Below are positions 4,285 through 15,672 of a DNA stretch of 20,000 bases, in pieces. Position 1 is the stretch's first letter; every line of letters starts with the position of its first letter. The translations under genes were made by a program, and so were the position numbers. The notes beneath the pieces are model-generated. The model ran no database searches. It saw only the letters and a program-made list of their open reading frames with translations, and was not told where the DNA came from. This DNA is from an uncultured virus (IMG/VR IMGVR_UViG_2660238005_000005) (Duplodnaviria > Heunggongvirae > Uroviricota > Caudoviricetes), in IMG/VR virus record IMGVR_UViG_2660238005_000005; one strand, written 5' to 3'.

Positions 4285-4860
4285 TCAGGCTTTCCCCAGC
4301 AGGATGTCCCGGATACGTTGTTCGAGCTGCTCGCTCATGCCGTCGCTGCCACGCATCTCTTCCAGGCGCTGCTCCTGTTCCTGGAGCTGTTTCTCGCGGC
4401 CCCGCTGCTCAGCCTCTGCCTGGAACTTCTTCAGCGTGACGCTGGAGCGCGTCAGCGTCGCGATGTTCTTTGCCGCTGACGCCAGCAGTCCGACACGATC
4501 AGCCGGGTCCATCTCTTCATCACCAGCCTCCTGCAAAGAGATGATCGACTCGAACAGCTCGGACTGGATCATCGCCGTCAGCGCCTCGCTGCGTGCGTCC
4601 AGGTCGTCGCCGGCCTGGGCACGGATCAGCTTGGCCGCCTCGGTGCTGGCACGAATTGCCGCCAGCCGCCGCTCCAGCTTCTGGCCGTAGCGATGCACGG
4701 CTGCCCGGCTGGGCAGCTCGCCGGCCTCGGCCTGGCTCGGGAACTGCGCCTGCAGGTCCGCGATCAGCTCGTCCAGGGTCATCCGGCCATCGGCCAGGCG
4801 CCCCTCGATGTAGGCCCGGACTTGGTCCGGTAGCCGGGAGATCGATGATTTCCGCCCCAT
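4285..4860 (-). CDS. DUF3486 / Mu gp27-like protein (putative small terminase)
   Basis: MGRKSSISRLP...PSRAAVHRYG signature; directly upstream of the large terminase. Confidence 0.88.
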   Translation of the reverse strand: MGRKSSISRLPDQVRAYIEGRLADGRMTLDELIADLQAQFPSQAEAGELPSRAAVHRYGQKLERRLAAIRASTEAAKLIRAQAGDDLDARSEALTAMIQSELFESIISLQEAGDEEMDPADRVGLLASAAKNIATLTRSSVTLKKFQAEAEQRGREKQLQEQEQRLEEMRGSDGMSEQLEQRIRDILLGKA

Positions 4861-6169: not shown

Positions 6170-6368
6170 GATTTCTCCGCTTGTACTTGCGAGCCTTACG
6201 TTTCGCCCGAGCCACACCGGACTTACCATGCCGCTCGCGCGGCACTGGCGAGCAATACAGCTCAGGTGCCGGTAGGAAGTCGCGACTGCCTGCGAACAGT
6301 CGCTGGATCACCGCCAGGTCGAGGTAGGTAACGTTCAGAGCCAAGGTGATGCTGGAGGACAGTCTCAC
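6156..6368 (-). CDS. Small basic protein of the lysis cassette (70 aa)
   Basis: GTG 6368 overlaps the endolysin stop (GTGA) with GGAGAGG upstream; C-terminus HGKSGVARAKRKARKYKRR. Confidence 0.65.
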   Translation of the reverse strand: MRLSSSITLALNVTYLDLAVIQRLFAGSRDFLPAPELYCSPVPRERHGKSGVARAKRKARKYKRRNHGRP

Positions 6369-6994
6369 AGGGTGTACCTCTCCCCGCACACGCCGTCGCC
6401 CCACTGCAGGTAGATCCGCTCATAGCGAAGCAGGATGAGGCGCGGGTAGTTGCGGTTCTCGCGAAAGTTGGCGGCAGAGCGCCCGGCGTTGAAGCGCTCG
6501 ACGGAATCGAACCAGGCCAGCTGGTCGGCGCCGGATGCCGAGGCCAGCCTACGGTCGCGAATTACCCACCCCTGACCGCCGTTGTAAGCGGACAGTACGA
6601 ATGCCCAGCGATCACACTCGCTGGAGGCCTGGTTTCGGTCGTAGAGCCAACGGTCGTAGGTAACCAGCGCTCGCAGTGCCCAGCCAGGATTGAACGGCTG
6701 ATTGGTGCCGAGGGCGGCCGGATACAGGCCGGCGATCCACTCCGCGGTTCCGGGCATGAACTGCGCCAGACCCTGGGCACCAACAGGCGAGCGGGCATCA
6801 GCACGCCAACGGCTTTCCTGGTGAACCTGTGCGGCAAAGGTGGCGATCGGCGCCGACAGGCCCCATTCGGCATGGGCGCTGCGCACCAGGGTGCGCCGGT
6901 ATTGCTCGGCGGCAGTGGGGATGCGATCCGTCGCGAAGGCCGGCTGGCAGACGCTCAGCAGGCCGATCAGGCCGAGGGTGAGCAGGCGCTTCAT
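6365..6994 (-). CDS. Endolysin, soluble lytic transglycosylase (SLT) family, with N-terminal export signal
   Basis: Start moved to ATG 6994 (ATGA overlap); QVHQES catalytic Glu, GAQGLAQFMPGTA, AYNGG and ENRNY motifs; N-terminus MKRLLTLGLIGLLSVCQPAFA. Confidence 0.93.
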   Translation of the reverse strand: MKRLLTLGLIGLLSVCQPAFATDRIPTAAEQYRRTLVRSAHAEWGLSAPIATFAAQVHQESRWRADARSPVGAQGLAQFMPGTAEWIAGLYPAALGTNQPFNPGWALRALVTYDRWLYDRNQASSECDRWAFVLSAYNGGQGWVIRDRRLASASGADQLAWFDSVERFNAGRSAANFRENRNYPRLILLRYERIYLQWGDGVCGERYTL

Positions 6995-7149
6995 CCGAAG
7001 AAGCCTCCCCACCACACCAGGGCCGTCATCGCGATCACGTCGAACACGCGCTGCTTGAAGCTGATCACGTTGGTGAGGCCATCGCACGCATAGGACGTAA
7101 CCAGGACCACAGCGGCCAGCACGATCCAGATGATTTGCGGGGCGCCCAT
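6991..7149 (-). CDS. Small two-TM membrane protein (52 aa), possible antiholin or holin partner
   Basis: MGAPQIIWIVLAAVVLVTSY...VIAMTALVWWGGFFG; fills the gap between holin and endolysin. Confidence 0.7.
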   Translation of the reverse strand: MGAPQIIWIVLAAVVLVTSYACDGLTNVISFKQRVFDVIAMTALVWWGGFFG

Positions 7150-9364: not shown

Positions 9365-9709
9365 TCATCCTGCTTTCTTACCAGTGCGACGCGCGAACGC
9401 ATCGCTCGTCGCCTTGAGTGCGGCCTGAGCGTCGGGCGGGCTATGCCGGTAGTTGTCCAGCAGGATGCGTTCGTCGGGGGCTAGTGGCGCCGATTGGACC
9501 TGCCGCATCCCTGTCAAGATGAAAACCAGATCAAGGCCTTTTCGGGCTAAGGCTTCGAAAACAGCAGCGCCCGGCGCCGCCACACCTCGCTCGTACTTGC
9601 TCCACATTTCCCGCCGTACACCAGCCTCATCCGCCATCTGCTGCTGTGTCAGCCCTGCGTTCTCACGTTCTTCACGCAGCCGCTCACCAGAATGCGCATC
9701 AAAAGACAC
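9365..9709 (-). CDS. Phage immunity repressor, XRE-type HTH (114 aa)
   Basis: GERLREERENAGLTQQQMADEAGVRREMWSKYERGVAAP HTH; GTG 9709 preceded by AAGGAG; divergent from the ner-like gene; no S24 peptidase domain. Confidence 0.9.
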   Translation of the reverse strand: MSFDAHSGERLREERENAGLTQQQMADEAGVRREMWSKYERGVAAPGAAVFEALARKGLDLVFILTGMRQVQSAPLAPDERILLDNYRHSPPDAQAALKATSDAFARRTGKKAG

Positions 9710-9745
9710 ATTCTCTCCTTGAATATGTGCATCAAAGTGCACATA
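9692..9745. promoter_or_regulatory. Two repressor operator candidates
   Basis: Perfect TATGTGCA-TCAAAG-TGCACATA (9724-9745) and degenerate ATGCGCA-TCAAAA-GACACAT (9692-9711); extra half-site TGCACAT at 9766-9772. Confidence 0.8.
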
Positions 9746-9747
9746 CT
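9719..9747 (+). promoter_or_regulatory. Early sigma70 promoter candidate (Pe)
   Basis: TTGAAT (9719-9724), 17-bp spacer, CATACT (9742-9747); the perfect operator spans the spacer. Confidence 0.7.
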
Positions 9748-9815
9748 TCATTCACACCAAAGCACTGCACATGCATTGGTTTATTAGCAATCTTTCAGCA
9801 GATAGGAACCCCGTC

Positions 9816-10678: not shown

Positions 10679-11167
10679 ATGAAGCGCCGGAATTGGAAGC
10701 ACTGGGTGCCGCGCTCGCCAGCCGACGCGCTGGACGGCTGTGCGCAGTTGGCCATGCAGCGCTACAACCGAGGCATCGAACGCCTGGCCTGTGATCACCT
10801 GGGCCAGAACAACCACAGCTCTCTCTATAAGTGGATCGGCAACGGACGCCTGCCACTGAGCCTGATCCTTCCGCTGGAGCACGCCTGCGGCCTGCCGCTG
10901 ATCACCCGTTACCTGGCCGCCGCTCACGGCAAGCTCCTGGTCGACATCCCGGTTGGCAAGGCCTGCAACGCCAGCGACCTGCAGCAGCTGCAGGGCGTGC
11001 TGCACAACGCCACCGGCGCGCTGATGGCCTTCTACGACGGCAAACAAACCGCCGAACAGACCCTGGACGCCATCCGCGCCGGCCTCGAATCCCTCGCTTG
11101 GCACCACGGCAACGTCGCCCAGGCAGAAACCCCTCAACTGGACTTTGGAGTGGCTGACGATGAGTGA
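10679..11167 (+). CDS. Phage regulatory protein, HTH / CII-like (162 aa)
   Basis: ATG 10679 with GGAG RBS; IERLA...SLYKWIGNGRLP...LEHACG pattern. Confidence 0.7.
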   Translation: MKRRNWKHWVPRSPADALDGCAQLAMQRYNRGIERLACDHLGQNNHSSLYKWIGNGRLPLSLILPLEHACGLPLITRYLAAAHGKLLVDIPVGKACNASDLQQLQGVLHNATGALMAFYDGKQTAEQTLDAIRAGLESLAWHHGNVAQAETPQLDFGVADDE

Positions 11168-11420
11168 GTCCATCAACCTGCAGGCGCTGCTGCAGCGCCT
11201 GGACGAGCAAGCCTATGAGCAGCTCTGCATCGAAGCTGCGCGCCTTGCCGAAGAGAACGAGCACCTGCGCACCGAGCTGGCCCGCATGGAGGAATGTGCC
11301 GAAGGGTGGTGCAACGAGGCTCAGCATCTCCACCAGCAACTGGCGGAGGCCACCGGTGGCCAAGCCGCTATCACCCAGTCCGGCGCCTTGGTCGTCATCC
11401 CGATGGAGCGCTGCGCATGA
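11160..11420 (+). CDS. Hypothetical coiled-coil protein (86 aa)
   Basis: GGAG RBS, ATG 11160, overlap-coupled to both neighbours. Confidence 0.75.
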   Translation: MSESINLQALLQRLDEQAYEQLCIEAARLAEENEHLRTELARMEECAEGWCNEAQHLHQQLAEATGGQAAITQSGALVVIPMERCA

Positions 11421-11731
11421 GTACCGAGAAATACCGCTCCGAGCAGGTCCAGCGAACCCTGCGGGTCATGCTGGCCCTCGCCGCCAACGAATTCCGGGGG
11501 CTGCTGCTGAAGGAGGTGGCGGTCGCCGCCGAGTGCGACGCCAGCGCCGCCCTGCGCGCCCTGGAAAACCTGCGCATCGCCGGTCTGGCTGACCGCAGCC
11601 CGCATGACGACAAGCGCTGGCTGCTCGGACCGCGCCTGGTCCAGGTGGCCTTTGGCTTCGACGAAGCCCTGCGCCGCAGCCAGGACGAACTCAACGAGCG
11701 TCGCCAACGCTACACCCGTCTCCCGAACTAA
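11417..11731 (+). CDS. IclR-like winged HTH protein (104 aa)
   Basis: ATGA coupling; VQRTLRVMLALA...GLLLKEVAVA...ALRALENLRIAGLA...WLLGPRL. Confidence 0.8.
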   Translation: MSTEKYRSEQVQRTLRVMLALAANEFRGLLLKEVAVAAECDASAALRALENLRIAGLADRSPHDDKRWLLGPRLVQVAFGFDEALRRSQDELNERRQRYTRLPN

Positions 11732-11740
11732 GGAAATCCC

Positions 11741-12718
11741 ATGGCCCGTAAAGCATCCCCCGTGAAAGTGGAACCCATACCTGAAGTCAACCAGCAGGCG
11801 TACCAGGCTGAGGCAGGCGCGCTGACCATGCTGGGCGACATTGCCCAGGGCATGCATGAGGAGCGCGACCTGGTCAACCAACTGCTCGGCCAAGCGCAGA
11901 TGGCAGAGGCATTCACCCAATTTTCCCTGACCGTCAGGACTTCTAAGCTCGCCTATGTGAAAGAAACCAAGCTGTACAGGGCGCTCAAGGGCAAGAAAAG
12001 TCCTGACGGTCAGGACTTTTTGTCTGGCACCTGGGAGGAGTTCTGCCTCCTACTAGGTCGCTCAGTAGCGCAAGTGGATGAGGATATCGCCAACCTCCGC
12101 GCGCTCGGCGAAGAAGCCCTGGAATCCATGTCCCGCATGGGCATCGGCTACCGCGAGCTGCGCCAGTGGCGAAAGCTGCCCGATGATGCCCGTAGCGCCC
12201 TGATCGAAGCGGCTAAGCAGGGCAACAAGGACGCCGTCGAGTACCTGGCCGAGGAGCTGATCGCCACCCACACCAAGGAAAAGGCTGCCCTGGAGAAGCA
12301 GGTCGAGGACCTGCGGGCGGACAACGAAGCCCTGGGCGAGCGCATGGCGCGCAAGTCCCGCGAGCTGGACGAAACCGTCCACGAACTGGAAAAGACCAAG
12401 CGGCGCATCCAAACCATGAAGGCGGATGAGGCCGAGAAAGAGCTTCGCCAGGAAGCAACGGCGATCGCCTTCGAGGCCGAGGCCGACATCAGCGGCAAGC
12501 TGCGCGAAGCCTTCTCCGTCATGCTCGACCACGCCGAAAAGACCGGTACCGACCCCCGCACCTTCCAGGCTGGTCTGGTGCGCCACCTCGAAAAACTGCT
12601 CCTGCAGATTCGCGAAGAGTTCCAGTTGCCCGACGGCGAAGCCCCCGATGACATCAGCGAATTCGGCTGGATCGAGCAAATGGGCAAGTCCCAGCCTGCA
12701 GGCGCGGCTGAGGACTGA
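11741..12718 (+). CDS. DUF3102-like HTH plus coiled-coil protein (325 aa)
   Basis: AAGGA RBS; GTWEEFCLLLGRSVAQVDEDIANL HTH-like segment; long coiled coil; 3 nt upstream of the transposase. Confidence 0.75.
   Translation: MARKASPVKVEPIPEVNQQAYQAEAGALTMLGDIAQGMHEERDLVNQLLGQAQMAEAFTQFSLTVRTSKLAYVKETKLYRALKGKKSPDGQDFLSGTWEEFCLLLGRSVAQVDEDIANLRALGEEALESMSRMGIGYRELRQWRKLPDDARSALIEAAKQGNKDAVEYLAEELIATHTKEKAALEKQVEDLRADNEALGERMARKSRELDETVHELEKTKRRIQTMKADEAEKELRQEATAIAFEAEADISGKLREAFSVMLDHAEKTGTDPRTFQAGLVRHLEKLLLQIREEFQLPDGEAPDDISEFGWIEQMGKSQPAGAAED
11926..12020. repeat. Two related intragenic palindromes that also form a 17-bp inverted repeat
   Basis: CCTGAC-C-GTCAGG-ACTT (11926-11942) and perfect AAAAGTCCTGAC-G-GTCAGGACTTTT (11996-12020); 11926-11942 is the exact reverse complement of 11998-12014. 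Confidence 0.95.
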
Positions 12719-12721
12719 GCC

Positions 12722-14506
12722 ATGAGCGCCGTCATTACTCAAGCCCTAGTCGATCTGGAGCGCGCCCTTCGCGCCGCCCCACGCGGGCAGCGCGTAGAGA
12801 TTGCCCAGTCGACGGCCCAGCGGCTCGACATGTCACTCGCCACGCTTTACCGCAAGCTGAGGGAGGTCACCGCAGACAGCAAGCCCCGCAAACGCCGGAG
12901 TGACGCCGGCACCAGTGCCCTGAGCCGGGAAGATGCCCTGACCATCAGTAGCGCGCTGATGGAGAGTGCGCGCCGCAACGAAAAGCGTCTGTATAGCCTG
13001 GAGGATGCGGTGGAAGCGCTACGGGCCAGTAAGATGATCCGGGCGGACGTCATTGACGAGGACACGGGCGAGATTCGGCCGCTGTCCATCAGCGCGATAT
13101 CCAGGGCTCTCTACAGCTTCGGGGTTCATCCCCAGCAATTGCTGCAGCCTGCTCCGGTAACGGAGCTGGGCAGTTGCCACCCCAACCACGTTTGGCAGAT
13201 CGATGCCTCGCTGTGTGTTCTTTATTACCTCAAGCCCGGCACCGACGAGCACGGTAACGGCCTGCGCGTCATGGAGCATGACCGGTTCTACAAGAACAAG
13301 CCGAAGAACGTGGCCCGCATCGCCTCCAACCGGGTCTGGTCGTACGAGATCACCGAGCACGCCAGTGGCTGGATTTACCTGAAGTACGTCATGGGGGCCG
13401 AGAGCGGCGAGAACCTGTGTGATGTGCTGATCGACGCCATGCAGGAGCGCGGTGGCAACGACATTCTGCACGGCGTGCCGAAGATTCTGATGATGGACCC
13501 AGGTTCTGCCAACACCTCGGCCATGGCCAGGAACCTTTGCCGTGCGCTGCGCATCCGCGTCATCGTTCACAAGCCCGGTGCCGCGCGGGTGACTGGCCAG
13601 GTGGAGAACGCCCGGAACCTCATCGAGCGCAAGTTCGAAGCGGGACTGCGCTTCCAGCCTGTCGCCGATCTGGACGAACTGAACGCTGCCGCCAAGACCT
13701 GGCGCGCGTGGTTCAACGCCGCGAAGAAGCACTCCCGCCATGGGATGACCCGCTCGGAGGCCTGGATGCGCATCCGTGAGCACCAGTTGGTGAAAGCGCC
13801 CAGCGTCGAAGTATGCCGCCAGTTGGCAATCGCCGAGCCGGAGAGCCGCAAGGTCACCAGCAAGCTGCGCGTCAGCTTCCAGGGAACTGAATACGACGTC
13901 TCGGTCGTACCTGGCGTGATGATCGGCGAGAAGCTGATGATCACCCGCAACCCCTGGCAAAGCGATGCCGCCCAGGCGATCACTTTCGACCAGGACGGCC
14001 ATGAAGTCTTCCACGTCATTCCGAGGATCGAGGAAGACGAGTTCGGCTTCGACGTGCGCGCACCCATGATTGGCGAGGATTTCCGGCAGCATGCGGAGAC
14101 GCCTGCGCAGAAAGCCCGCAAGGAAGCGGCCCGGCTGGCCATGGGCGTCGATACCGATGCCGAAGAGCAGGCCGCACGCAAGGCCAAGGCCATTCCGTTC
14201 GGCGGGAGGCTCAAGCCCTACCAGCATATCGAAGACGCTCAGTTGCCGACCTTCATGCCACGCAAGGGCAGCGAGCTGCAGCTCGACGTGACACTGCCCA
14301 CCGTCGAGAGCAAGCCACTGAGTCACCCGGCAGCCGCCAAGATCCTCCGGGCACGCCTGGATGGCGTCTGGAGTCCCGAGTCGATGCTCTGGCTCAAGTC
14401 CAACTACCCCGACGGGGTGCTGGAGGACCAGCTCGACAGCATCGTCGAGCAGTTGCAGGCGGCGCCCAGCCGGCCCGCGCTGCGCGTTGTGGGAGGTAAC
14501 TCGTAA
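12722..14506 (+). CDS. DDE transposase (transposase A, B3/BcepMu type)
   Basis: 594 aa; N-terminal HTH (LDMSLATLYRKL), RKRRSDAG, WQIDAS, LMMDPGS and GQVENARN catalytic motifs. Confidence 0.95.
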   Translation: MSAVITQALVDLERALRAAPRGQRVEIAQSTAQRLDMSLATLYRKLREVTADSKPRKRRSDAGTSALSREDALTISSALMESARRNEKRLYSLEDAVEALRASKMIRADVIDEDTGEIRPLSISAISRALYSFGVHPQQLLQPAPVTELGSCHPNHVWQIDASLCVLYYLKPGTDEHGNGLRVMEHDRFYKNKPKNVARIASNRVWSYEITEHASGWIYLKYVMGAESGENLCDVLIDAMQERGGNDILHGVPKILMMDPGSANTSAMARNLCRALRIRVIVHKPGAARVTGQVENARNLIERKFEAGLRFQPVADLDELNAAAKTWRAWFNAAKKHSRHGMTRSEAWMRIREHQLVKAPSVEVCRQLAIAEPESRKVTSKLRVSFQGTEYDVSVVPGVMIGEKLMITRNPWQSDAAQAITFDQDGHEVFHVIPRIEEDEFGFDVRAPMIGEDFRQHAETPAQKARKEAARLAMGVDTDAEEQAARKAKAIPFGGRLKPYQHIEDAQLPTFMPRKGSELQLDVTLPTVESKPLSHPAAAKILRARLDGVWSPESMLWLKSNYPDGVLEDQLDSIVEQLQAAPSRPALRVVGGNS

Positions 14507-15672
14507 TGCTGAAGCTCAAGGAAGTCCTGGCCAGCCTCGGCAAGCCGCAGACCGATCTGGCCCGTGCGGTCGATCTCAGTCCGGCGACGATCGCTCAACT
14601 GATCAACCACAGCCAGTGGCCGAAATCGCTGGACCAGCAGCAACTGGCCTGGCGGATCACCGAATACCTGATGGCTCAGGGCGCGCAGTTCGACACCGTG
14701 CGCCAGGCCTTCGACGAAGTGGGGCCCCGGCGCGCCAACGCCGGGGCCCCTGCAACCCCCGAAGACGCTCAAGAAAACGAGGAGTGCGAACCCATGCTAA
14801 TGCGCAAACAGGTATTGCTGCCAGCCACGAAGAAGGCTTTCGACATCCGCCGAGATCCCTTCGACGAGTTGCAGAGTGCTGACGACATCTTCATCAACGC
14901 TGATATCCGCTATGTCCGCGAGGCGATGCACCAGGTCGCCATGCACGATGGTTTTCTGGCGGTGATCGGGGAGTCCGGGGCGGGCAAGTCCACCTTGCGC
15001 CGAGATCTGGAGCATCGACTGGAAGGCACCCCAGTGACGGTCATTCAGCCATACGTGCTGGGGATGGAAGACAACGACACCAAGGGCAAGCCCCTCAAGA
15101 GCGAGCATATCGCCGAGGCCATCCTGGCGGAGATCGCGCCAGACCAAACGCCGCGGAACAGCTCGCAGGCCCGCTGGGCGCAACTGCACAAGGCTCTGAA
15201 GGCCAGCCACACCGCAGGCTCGCGCCACCTGCTGATCATCGAGGAGGCACACAGCCTATCGACCCCGACGATCAAGCACCTCAAGCGCTACCGCGAACTC
15301 GAACTGGGCTACACGAAGCTGGTGTCGATCATCCTGATCGGTCAGCCCGAACTGCTCATCAAGTTGTCGCCGCGCAACGGCGAAGTCCGAGAGGTGGCCC
15401 AGCGCATCGAGATCGTCGAGTTGCCGCCGCTCACGGTCGGCGGACTGGAACAGCACCTGGCGTTTCGTTTCGAGCGGGTTGGCAAGGCACTGAGCGATGT
15501 GATCGATGCATCCGGCCTGCAGGCCATCATCGAGAGGCTGGGGGGCGTCAAGGAAAACAAGCCCAGCCTGCTCTATCCGCTGGCCATCGGCAACCTGGTG
15601 AAGGCCGCTATGAACTATGCCGCGCTCGTCGGCGAGCCGCGCGTCACTGCTGACGTGGTTCGGGAGGCCTGA
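14506..15672 (+). CDS. Transposition AAA+ ATPase (MuB-equivalent, ExeA-like) with N-terminal HTH
   Basis: GESGAGKS Walker A, LLIIEEAH Walker B, LIGQPEL sensor, QR finger; N-terminal QTDLARAVDLSPATIAQLIN HTH; TAATG coupling to the transposase. Confidence 0.93.
   Translation: MLKLKEVLASLGKPQTDLARAVDLSPATIAQLINHSQWPKSLDQQQLAWRITEYLMAQGAQFDTVRQAFDEVGPRRANAGAPATPEDAQENEECEPMLMRKQVLLPATKKAFDIRRDPFDELQSADDIFINADIRYVREAMHQVAMHDGFLAVIGESGAGKSTLRRDLEHRLEGTPVTVIQPYVLGMEDNDTKGKPLKSEHIAEAILAEIAPDQTPRNSSQARWAQLHKALKASHTAGSRHLLIIEEAHSLSTPTIKHLKRYRELELGYTKLVSIILIGQPELLIKLSPRNGEVREVAQRIEIVELPPLTVGGLEQHLAFRFERVGKALSDVIDASGLQAIIERLGGVKENKPSLLYPLAIGNLVKAAMNYAALVGEPRVTADVVREA
14721..14750 (+). repeat. Perfect 12-bp GC hairpin in the ATPase interdomain linker
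   Basis: GGGGCCCCGGCG-CGCCAA-CGCCGGGGCCCC. Confidence 0.9.

Follow-up and report, generated by a model that had tools for sequence, protein, structure and literature searches.

Paired palindromes and a covarying helix make up a predicted specificity cassette in the gene preceding tnpA of B3-like transposable phages

The gene directly preceding the transposase gene tnpA in B3-like transposable phages carries two matching palindromes within its own coding sequence. The protein it encodes probably binds its own gene at these twin sites as a symmetric oligomer, and the sites together with the residues that read them would form a self-contained specificity cassette. We describe this system in a stretch of 20,000 nucleotides (nt), hereafter the window, from the uncultured virus record IMGVR_UViG_2660238005_000005 of IMG/VR, which belongs to a B3-like (Beetrevirus-type) transposable prophage such as occurs in Pseudomonas aeruginosa. 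The gene is an open reading frame (ORF) at 11741-12718 on the plus strand, and its product of 325 amino acids (aa), a member of phrog_4623, is predicted to bind DNA through its N-terminal domain, its C-terminal half being a long coiled coil. A first-pass annotation made from the sequence alone had proposed that this protein binds within its own gene, and the proposal gains support from covariation between residues of the protein and bases of the sites. We infer binding, the dimer and the groove geometry from what the sequences themselves contain, namely the sites, their uniqueness, their concerted change and this covariation.

Site 1 (11926-11938; strandless, as is site 2) is a perfect palindrome of 13 base pairs (bp), CCTGAC-C-GTCAGG (CCTGACCGTCAGG), centred on the C at 11932 in codons 62-66 and followed by a conserved 3' flank, ACTT, that extends to 11942. 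Site 2 (11996-12020) is a perfect 25-bp palindrome (AAAAGTCCTGACGGTCAGGACTTTT) centred on the G at 12008, and its core, CCTGAC-G-GTCAGG at 12002-12014 in codons 86-93, is as in site 1. The centres lie 76 bp apart, and the repeat listing returns the pair twice, once as a direct repeat of 17 nt (94% identity, spacing 76) and once as an inverted repeat of 17 nt (100% complementary). The first-pass annotation had placed both palindromes and their spacing correctly to the base, and codons for a helix-turn-helix (HTH)-like unit do come directly after them, at 12029-12094. Both sites are in frame and in different codon phases, site 1 reading S62-L-T-V-R-T67 and site 2 K86-S-P-D-G-Q-D-F93. Exact matches to the 13-mer pattern CCTGACNGTCAGG are found in the 20 kb only at sites 1 and 2; at up to 2 mismatches there are four matches versus 1.30 expected, a number reached in 7 of 200 shuffles. 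An odd palindrome with arms of at least 12 bp was seen in one of 300 mononucleotide shuffles of the window. Palindromes with 6-bp arms are ordinary (13 with arms of at least 6 bp in the window versus a mean of 7.1 in shuffles), and the unusual point about site 1 is its repetition of the core of site 2, not its 6-bp arms. The question of chance is settled by the relatives, which keep the sites.

The 5' third of the gene was aligned for nine GenBank phages, then for 80 IMG/VR loci and later for 80 loci from bacterial genomes, and counts are given over 168 sequences, comprising 88 phage and IMG/VR sequences (with the window) and the 80 genome loci. Two perfect palindromes with arms of at least 5 bp occupy the same codons in 147 of the 168 (82/88 and 65/80, respectively), and the inner half-site is identical at both sites in 144 of these 147 (81 phage or IMG/VR sequences and 63 genome loci). 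Their spacing is 76 bp in 87/88 phage and IMG/VR sequences and in 80/80 genome loci. The arms vary among phages around a constant AC-S-GT core, with at least 18 types of the form nnnnAC-S-GTnnnn: CCTGAC in the window, CCGAAC in H72 and JD18, GGTCAC in JBD25, GAAGAC in SS2019XII and GGTGAC in Komp_PAO1_1. These 18 were counted over loci whose two sites are both perfect, and loci with one imperfect site add about five types. Site 2 arms in relatives are 5-12 bp long, with a core identical to that of site 1, and the exceptions to perfect symmetry include one-base defects in about 20 sites. The dyad thus persists while its sequence changes, the behaviour by which the first-pass annotation had proposed that an operator could be recognised. 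Since the same DNA word is kept in two frames, and the encoded amino acids change with it, selection is on the nucleic acid and not on a peptide repeat, in line with the earlier remark that the sites encode different peptides and are alike at the DNA level.

Codon choice points the same way. Site 1 is centred on the wobble base of Thr64, a codon that is ACG in 53 and ACC in 20 of 73 sequences, with A or T in 0/73, while Thr97 uses all four codons; a centre that is only G or C is a prediction of a two-fold symmetric duplex, because G and C there are the same base pair. Frozen codons flank site 1 (F61 as TTT in 67/72, T67 as ACT in 50/50) and lie within site 2 (G90 as GGT in 70/71, K86 as AAA in 49/53, S87 as AGT in 25/28). 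A patch midway between the sites, at 11963-11971 (codons 75-77), is likewise synonymously frozen (E75 as GAA in 65/73, N76 as AAC in 54/58, K77 as AAG in 72/72); the gene's other Lys and Glu codons vary, unlike E75 and K77.

Covariation with arm type was assessed in pairs of proteins less than 75% identical, drawn from 72 unique proteins and comprising 263 same-type and 2135 different-type pairs. A big excess of identity in same-type pairs was confined to the site-encoded residues 63, 66, 88, 89 and 91 and to residues 107, 109, 110, 111 and 114; residues 56, 59, 112, 113, 117 and 122 gave weaker signals. Association was about 0 at the variable positions that separate or adjoin the sites, or that separate site 2 from the helix (72, 76, 81, 83, 85-87 and 103), and simple linkage is therefore not the explanation of the pattern. 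In the controls, 1/300 columns of TnpA (first 300 aa) and 2/144 columns of the upstream ORF, a regulator, were above 0.4. The TnpA N terminus and the upstream regulator were rejected as readers of the sites, as neither covaries with arm type. The covariation that the first-pass annotation had suggested looking for thus tracks the proposed specificity residues 107-114 (12059-12082, plus strand) in the candidate recognition helix, and not residues nearer to the sites or either neighbouring protein.

A residue-base code was derived from 32 distinct half-site/residue units representing 150 of 167 loci, the other 17 being dropped for half-sites unlike each other or in another register. Base -3 is G with E114 (13/13 units), C with R114 (2/2) and A when residue 114 is A, I, L, M, Q or T (17/17), these classes of residue 114 fitting base -3 in 32/32 units. 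K111 goes with A at -3 (17/17 units) and R109 with G at -6 (8/8), and D110 is present in 12 of the 13 units having G at -4. Mutual information for the pairs -3/114, -4/110 and -6/109 is 1.26, 1.30 and 0.83 bits, each value being reached by 0 of 20000 shuffles. The relation is modular, as is seen in the minimal pairs CCGGAC with RSVDQVDED versus CCGCAC with RSVDQVDRD, and GGTGAC with RSREQVDED versus GGTCAC with RSREQVDRD, and in the change of C to G at -6, which accompanies V109R in two backgrounds (CGTGAC/GGTGAC with RSVE/RSRE, and CCGAAC/GCGAAC with SVDK/SRDK). Rules drawn from the IMG/VR loci were upheld in the later genome set across many genera (its taxa being Pseudomonas, Serratia, Erwinia, Pectobacterium, Salmonella diarizonae, Gilliamella, Comamonadaceae, Rhodocyclaceae and Xanthomonadales), which added the rule-abiding types CGTAAC, GGCGAC, CAAGAC and CGTCAC. 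In the major groove of B-DNA, Arg contacts G, Asp and Glu contact C, and aliphatic residues contact the thymine methyl group; the observed pairings match this contact chemistry.

Sites and specificity residues lie together in a hypervariable cassette at 11915-12081 (plus strand, codons 59-114), whose flanks are ~98-99% identical in close relatives. Against six such relatives, differences cluster at ~11894-12133, at 13-27 per 60 nt, versus mostly 0-4 per 60 nt outside the cassette; some comparisons have a few higher bins upstream, and the tnpA region is for the most part conserved. The contigs of three of four RNA-library runs (from four studies) join 11914 to 12082 over 164 unrelated letters that contain CCGAAC sites and the matching helix, and those of the fourth run end at both cassette borders, with cassette-type loose ends. 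Near-identical phages thus diverge only in 11915-12081, a segment covering both sites and helix, which bears out the earlier idea that site and recognition helix are inherited as one short cassette. These RNA-library assemblies contain contigs of 40-56 kb from a ~98% identical prophage with the CCGAAC cassette (compared over window positions 11300-12900); such lengths suggest DNA carry-over, and the contigs carry no information on expression, transcript ends or processing.

Within each phage the sites are unique. In four of four complete genomes (H72, JBD25, SS2019XII and Komp_PAO1_1), as in the window, there are exactly two copies of the phage's own 13-mer, both within this gene, and none at 1 mismatch, and foreign arm types have no perfect occurrence. 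No additional site was found at 0-1 mismatch at phage ends or promoters in the four genomes, and the 2-mismatch matches in the window, at 9424 and 12937, are at the level of control arm types. With no other copy of the site, the protein is therefore without another evident target in the phage. A link of arm type to the immunity region was considered and rejected, because, in 21 close relatives, arm type is reassorted relative to the repressor-region cluster.

In an AlphaFold2 model of the full-length protein built with 53 sequences, the mean predicted local distance difference test score (pLDDT) is 73.9; the domain of aa 40-165 modelled alone has 87.7. The predicted order is a long helix (18-76), a short hairpin (86-93) formed by the residues that site 2 encodes, a helix (98-104), a turn (105-108) and a helix (109-117). 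The HTH-like unit (12029-12094, plus strand, codons 97-118; helix 98-104, turn L-G-x-S, helix 109-117) has a pLDDT of 88-97, and Gly106 of its turn is near-invariant (at least 90%). The coiled-coil or helical C-terminal half (12227-12619, plus strand, aa 163-293) is modelled as helices 163-225, 228-268 and 273-293; it is 98-99% identical in close relatives, versus 87-94% for the whole protein, and by tblastn and hhalign it is common to branches with different DNA-binding domains. In tblastn only the C-terminal third (aa 184-325) resembles B3 ORF13, BcepMu gp10 and phiE255 gp41. The label 'HTH' is thus a prediction from the secondary-structure pattern, the covariation and a profile alignment to the B3 group. 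In that alignment (hhalign, 53 sequences versus 21 of the B3 ORF13, or DUF3102, group; probability 99.3, E 1.3e-20, 273 columns) the HTH-like segments SGTWEEFC..LGRS and HGDFTQIV..LGIH are paired, with most of the score from the C-terminal half. Protein Atlas gave best scores of 0.84-0.86 for aa 160-325, below lead level, with one row naming DUF3102 on 47% of members. B3 ORF13 itself matches DUF3102 (E 8.3e-6, 26.5 bits versus a cut-off of 24.4, aa 65-172), and Pfam gives no DUF3102 (PF11300) row for the window protein even at E<=10. The earlier description 'DUF3102-like' accordingly holds as profile-profile homology to B3 ORF13 and not as a Pfam match. 'ParB-style', the other earlier label, serves as an analogy only: no ParB family is among the Pfam hits of the window protein at E<=10, and its PHROGs matches are to unknown-function families only.

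The B3 branch has a counterpart of these sites. Its 33 IMG/VR loci (L094-L126) carry a single even, perfect palindrome of 26 bp at nt 350-375 of the gene, 3' of the HTH codons (in B3 ORF13, L004:2855-2880), and its inner bases change along with HTH residues; the core occurs once in the B3 genome. BcepMu gp10 contains a perfect 30-bp palindrome at nt 375-404 of the gene (L207:2266-2295). On this sequence comparison, a palindrome inside the pre-transposase gene appears to be a family trait spanning two types of DNA-binding domain. B3 ORF13, BcepMu gp10 and KS10 gp15 (DUF3102, PF11300) resemble the window gene in lying directly before the transposase gene and in having a homologous C-terminal half and HTH segment, and B3 ORF13 and BcepMu gp10 also in an in-gene palindrome that covaries with HTH residues. 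The latter two differ in having one even palindrome of 26-30 bp after the HTH codons, and another N-terminal region.

The distant L003, from a record named Leptolyngbya phage Lsp-JY19 with a cyanobacterial host assigned, has a B3-like early operon consisting of regulators, this gene at 42% identity and a DDE transposase, and its palindromes are even, of the GACGTC type and at shifted positions. L030 and L050 lie in opposite orientation on one IMG/VR contig and hold parts of the gene (aa 1-244 and 166-325, the L030 ORF having 534 aa), which points either to a rearrangement at the gene or to misassembly there.

In the mechanism that we propose, the helix at about 107-117, following the conserved Gly turn, would lie in the major groove and read the outer four bases of each half-site nnnnAC, and two subunits joined by their long helices would sit on each palindrome nnnnAC-S-GTnnnn. 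The twin sites lie 700-800 bp upstream of tnpA, and the 167-bp cassette would be inherited and exchanged whole, giving at least 18 private specificities. Several observations weigh against this proposal or the role that we attach to it below. The code is not one-to-one, as CCTGAC goes with either of two unrelated helices, RSVAQVDED (Pseudomonas) or KSSQHIDEE (Enterobacterales; L158 and L206), the latter being a second solution for that arm. Because a distance of 45-150 bp separates site from helix and the two travel within one cassette, many same-type sequences are copies of one origin, and the independent events are the ~18-23 types rather than the 168 loci. Six loci (Comamonadaceae and Rhodocyclaceae; L191, L193, L197 and L202-L204) have an AC-GT gap of 0 nt at site 1, and three or four (L053, L145, L187 and L189) have one of 2 nt at site 2, the partner site of the same phage retaining the usual 1-nt gap, whereas a rigid dimer on B-DNA should resist variable half-site spacing. 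The palindromes are more strictly symmetric than operators usually are, with 182 of 222 distinct 25-mers perfect over +-6, and the arms are extended to 7-12 bp in a site-specific manner, which a hairpin or cruciform would fit too. RNA folding of 11900-12050 pairs sites 1 and 2 over 16+ bp (-60.5 kcal/mol, z -3.85), with 0 of 200 shuffles as stable. Foldseek of the full-length and aa 40-165 models against the PDB gave no match at E<=0.001, and VIA-align of the aa 40-165 model had a best Z of 6.3; these fold searches yielded only long-helix or coiled-coil look-alikes, which neither name a family nor rule one out. A profile sequence search of the PDB gave a best E of 0.38 and no known HTH family. 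To our knowledge no enhancer has been reported for B3-like phages, and a simple autoregulator explains binding equally well.

Such an autoregulator, with the protein on both in-gene sites acting as a transcriptional roadblock or loop that throttles read-through to tnpA and tnpB, is rather unlikely. A precedent is E. coli purR, whose operator within its own coding sequence acts as a roadblock, and here too the sites follow the start codon and precede tnpA within a single operon, with no further cognate site in four of four phage genomes to suggest another target. The early operon of phage Fc02 is a single transcription unit in the available text of its transcription study (PMC9936078), which also fits. 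A roadblock, however, has no need of the ~160 aa of conserved coiled coil that the branches share, of a fixed 76-bp distance between twin sites or of dozens of private specificities; co-resident autoregulators would disturb each other only mildly, and the B3 and BcepMu branches carry a single site instead of a pair. It is improbable that the protein instead recognises a DNA hairpin or cruciform formed by the arms, extruded from supercoiled or single-stranded DNA, with one subunit per stem and AC-S-GT as the loop. This would account for the near-perfect symmetry, the tolerance of gaps of 0, 1 and 2 nt, the 26-30-bp perfect palindromes of the B3 and BcepMu branches, and arm extensions that differ between one phage's sites and stay self-complementary, and it fits the covariation equally, since the stem duplex is the half-site sequence. 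But 13-bp palindromes with a 1-nt centre extrude poorly, the G/C-only centre of site 1 suits a symmetric duplex better than a loop base, and no structure-specific nuclease or junction-binding domain was found among the Pfam hits.

More doubtful still is an mRNA element, in which two hairpins or a site 1:site 2 duplex would control translation, stability or termination before tnpA, and which the protein might bind as phage N proteins read boxB RNA. The minimum-free-energy pairing of the two sites given above speaks for it, as do the compensatory changes between arms, which are typical of RNA stems, and a TTTTT after site 2 in the window. The first-pass annotation had judged an RNA stem the poorer fit on account of the one-base centre; that argument is weak, as inner pairs can open and the folding pairs one site with the other. 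What counts against RNA is that only four of ~20 internal single mismatches are of the G-T type, no excess over mutation alone, that an inter-site duplex does not need each site to be palindromic, that both centres are G in most relatives and so would mismatch in it, and that pairings of aliphatic residues with A/T and of Arg with G/C suit the major groove of B-DNA. Site 2 as a terminator was rejected, since the terminator scan has no plus-strand match at 11926-12020 and the T-run is missing in whole arm-type groups such as CCGCAC. We consider it very improbable that the helix is no reader at all, and that changes forced by the sites at 63, 66, 88, 89 and 91, read by another factor or by none, are compensated by 107-114 in the fold. 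The site-encoded residues are indeed fixed by arm type and share a small domain with the helix, yet like charges are paired (E114 with D89, codon GAC; R114 with H89, codon CAC), the base contacts make chemical sense, no other nearby protein covaries, and the B3 branch shows the coupling too with its palindrome after, not before, the HTH codons. That palindromes arise easily because CTG (Leu) and CAG (Gln) codons are reverse complements probably holds for those at 10978-10994 and 11181-11201, which are built of such codons, and the window arms do contain CTG and CAG; as an account of the twin sites its likelihood is negligible, being refuted by at least 18 arm types, most without CTG or CAG, perfect at two places and in two frames in 147/168 sequences.

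If the protein does bind its twin sites, we tentatively suggest that the bound complex might be a cis-acting, phage-private, enhancer-like licence for transposition. The conserved C-terminal coiled-coil half would help the TnpA/TnpB machinery to assemble on its own phage genome, and the private specificities would stop co-resident related prophages from exploiting or jamming one another. We favour this role because the gene is always immediately before tnpA, both in the relatives checked and in the part of the KS10 gene table available (PMC2628397). We favour it also because the C-terminal half is conserved where specificity is not, as for an adaptor to conserved machinery, and because diversifying private pairs of site and reader are typical of replication and partition determinants. 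Such pairs are known from lambda O/ori and ParB/parS. Further reasons are the Mu enhancer, which is read by MuA aa 1-76 in the accessible text of PMC3362531, and the short N-terminal part of TnpA here, in which only about 160 aa precede the first catalytic Asp (D161), versus D269 in MuA. The reassortment of arm type with the repressor region also speaks for this role. A broader and rather doubtful reading is that B3/BcepMu-like phages have a kin-recognition module for replicative transposition, in which a separate enhancer-binding protein with sites in its own codons would license only the genome that encodes it, dozens of orthogonal specificities having arisen from conflict between co-resident prophages. 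If true, transposable phages would have in this module an incompatibility determinant whose code is readable, in which residue 109 specifies base -6, residue 110 bases -5/-4, and residues 111 and 114 base -3.

Among known systems, lambda O/ori-lambda is similar in having dyad-symmetric sites within the coding sequence of the reader, N-terminal specificity with a C-terminal part directed to conserved machinery, and different matched pairs in related phages, site and reader forming a cassette. It differs in having four iterons and an AT-rich region and in theta replication, whereas here there are exactly two sites, no Pfam hit of the window protein to an O-family domain, and replication by transposition. 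ParB-parS shares a palindromic site in or next to the reader's gene and replicon-private specificities; unlike it, this system has no ParB/CTPase domain that we could find and no ParA partner nearby, and an integrated prophage has no need of partition. The intragenic operators of purR, gal OI and lac O2 are also in coding sequence, in pairs tens of bp apart and read by a dimer or tetramer, but with fixed specificity, imperfect symmetry and a promoter-proximal partner, whereas both sites here are intragenic, perfect and hypervariable. The Mu enhancer (IAS), read by the I-alpha domain of MuA (available text of PMC3362531 and PMC5977238), is an internal cis site near the early region with a dedicated winged-HTH reader, serving transpososome assembly; its reader is within the transposase and the site lies over operators between c and ner, whereas here a separate putative reader has the site in its own gene. 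The transposition proteins of B3-like phages differ from those of Mu in the accessible part of PMC5977238. No Mu DNA-binding family is among the Pfam hits of the window protein or TnpA, and a sequence search of solved structures at E<=0.01 gave only a weak match to a non-Mu chain; in the fold searches, long helices dominated the results.

These findings give a function-level handle on a conserved pre-transposase gene of transposable phages of Pseudomonas, Burkholderia, Enterobacterales and others, previously annotated only as hypothetical, 'ATPase' or DUF3102. A literature search, made without most subscription journals, including those with the original B3 and BcepMu genome papers, returned no description of the palindromes or of the gene's function, and nothing functional for DUF3102. 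The family offers a natural series of at least 18 predicted matched protein/operator pairs with a partly combinatorial code, of use for studying the evolution of specificity and as orthogonal parts, and codons whose amino acids would be set by the DNA site that the same protein reads. Should the role in transposition be true, the twin sites would supply B3-like phages with a missing cis element, enhancer or private licence, and related prophages that share a cell would have a new way to compete.

By tblastn, the 325-aa protein matches 57 phage records, 35 of them at full length (at least 80% of the query covered), and the full-length relatives are 89-93% identical and occur in P. aeruginosa phages such as H72, JBD25, JBD67, JD18 and Fc02, where the gene is annotated as 'hypothetical protein', 'ATPase' or similar. 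The protein has no Pfam family at E<=0.01, and its PHROG, phrog_4623 (E 7.7e-141), is one of unknown function. The plus-strand early operon ends in tnpA and a tnpB-like gene. After 3 nt from the stop codon of the 325-aa gene, tnpA (12722-14506, plus strand) encodes a DDE/rve transposase of 594 aa (Pfam rve, E 8.6e-8), annotated as transposase A in relatives; the tnpB-like gene (14506-15672, plus strand) encodes an AAA+ transposition ATPase (Pfam AAA_22, E 1.4e-19), which in relatives is transposase B or DNA transposition protein. For Fc02, most early-operon ORFs are without an assigned function in the available text of the transcription paper (PMC9936078). On the minus strand are a repressor-like HTH gene (9365-9751) and a head/lysis gene block with a Mu-type portal (1102-2580), a gp27-like gene (4285-4860) and an SLT lysin (6365-7087). 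Two further long perfect palindromes, at 10978-10994 and 11181-11201 (8- and 10-bp arms), lie in the upstream early genes and are probably codon artefacts of CTG/CAG (Leu/Gln) codons.

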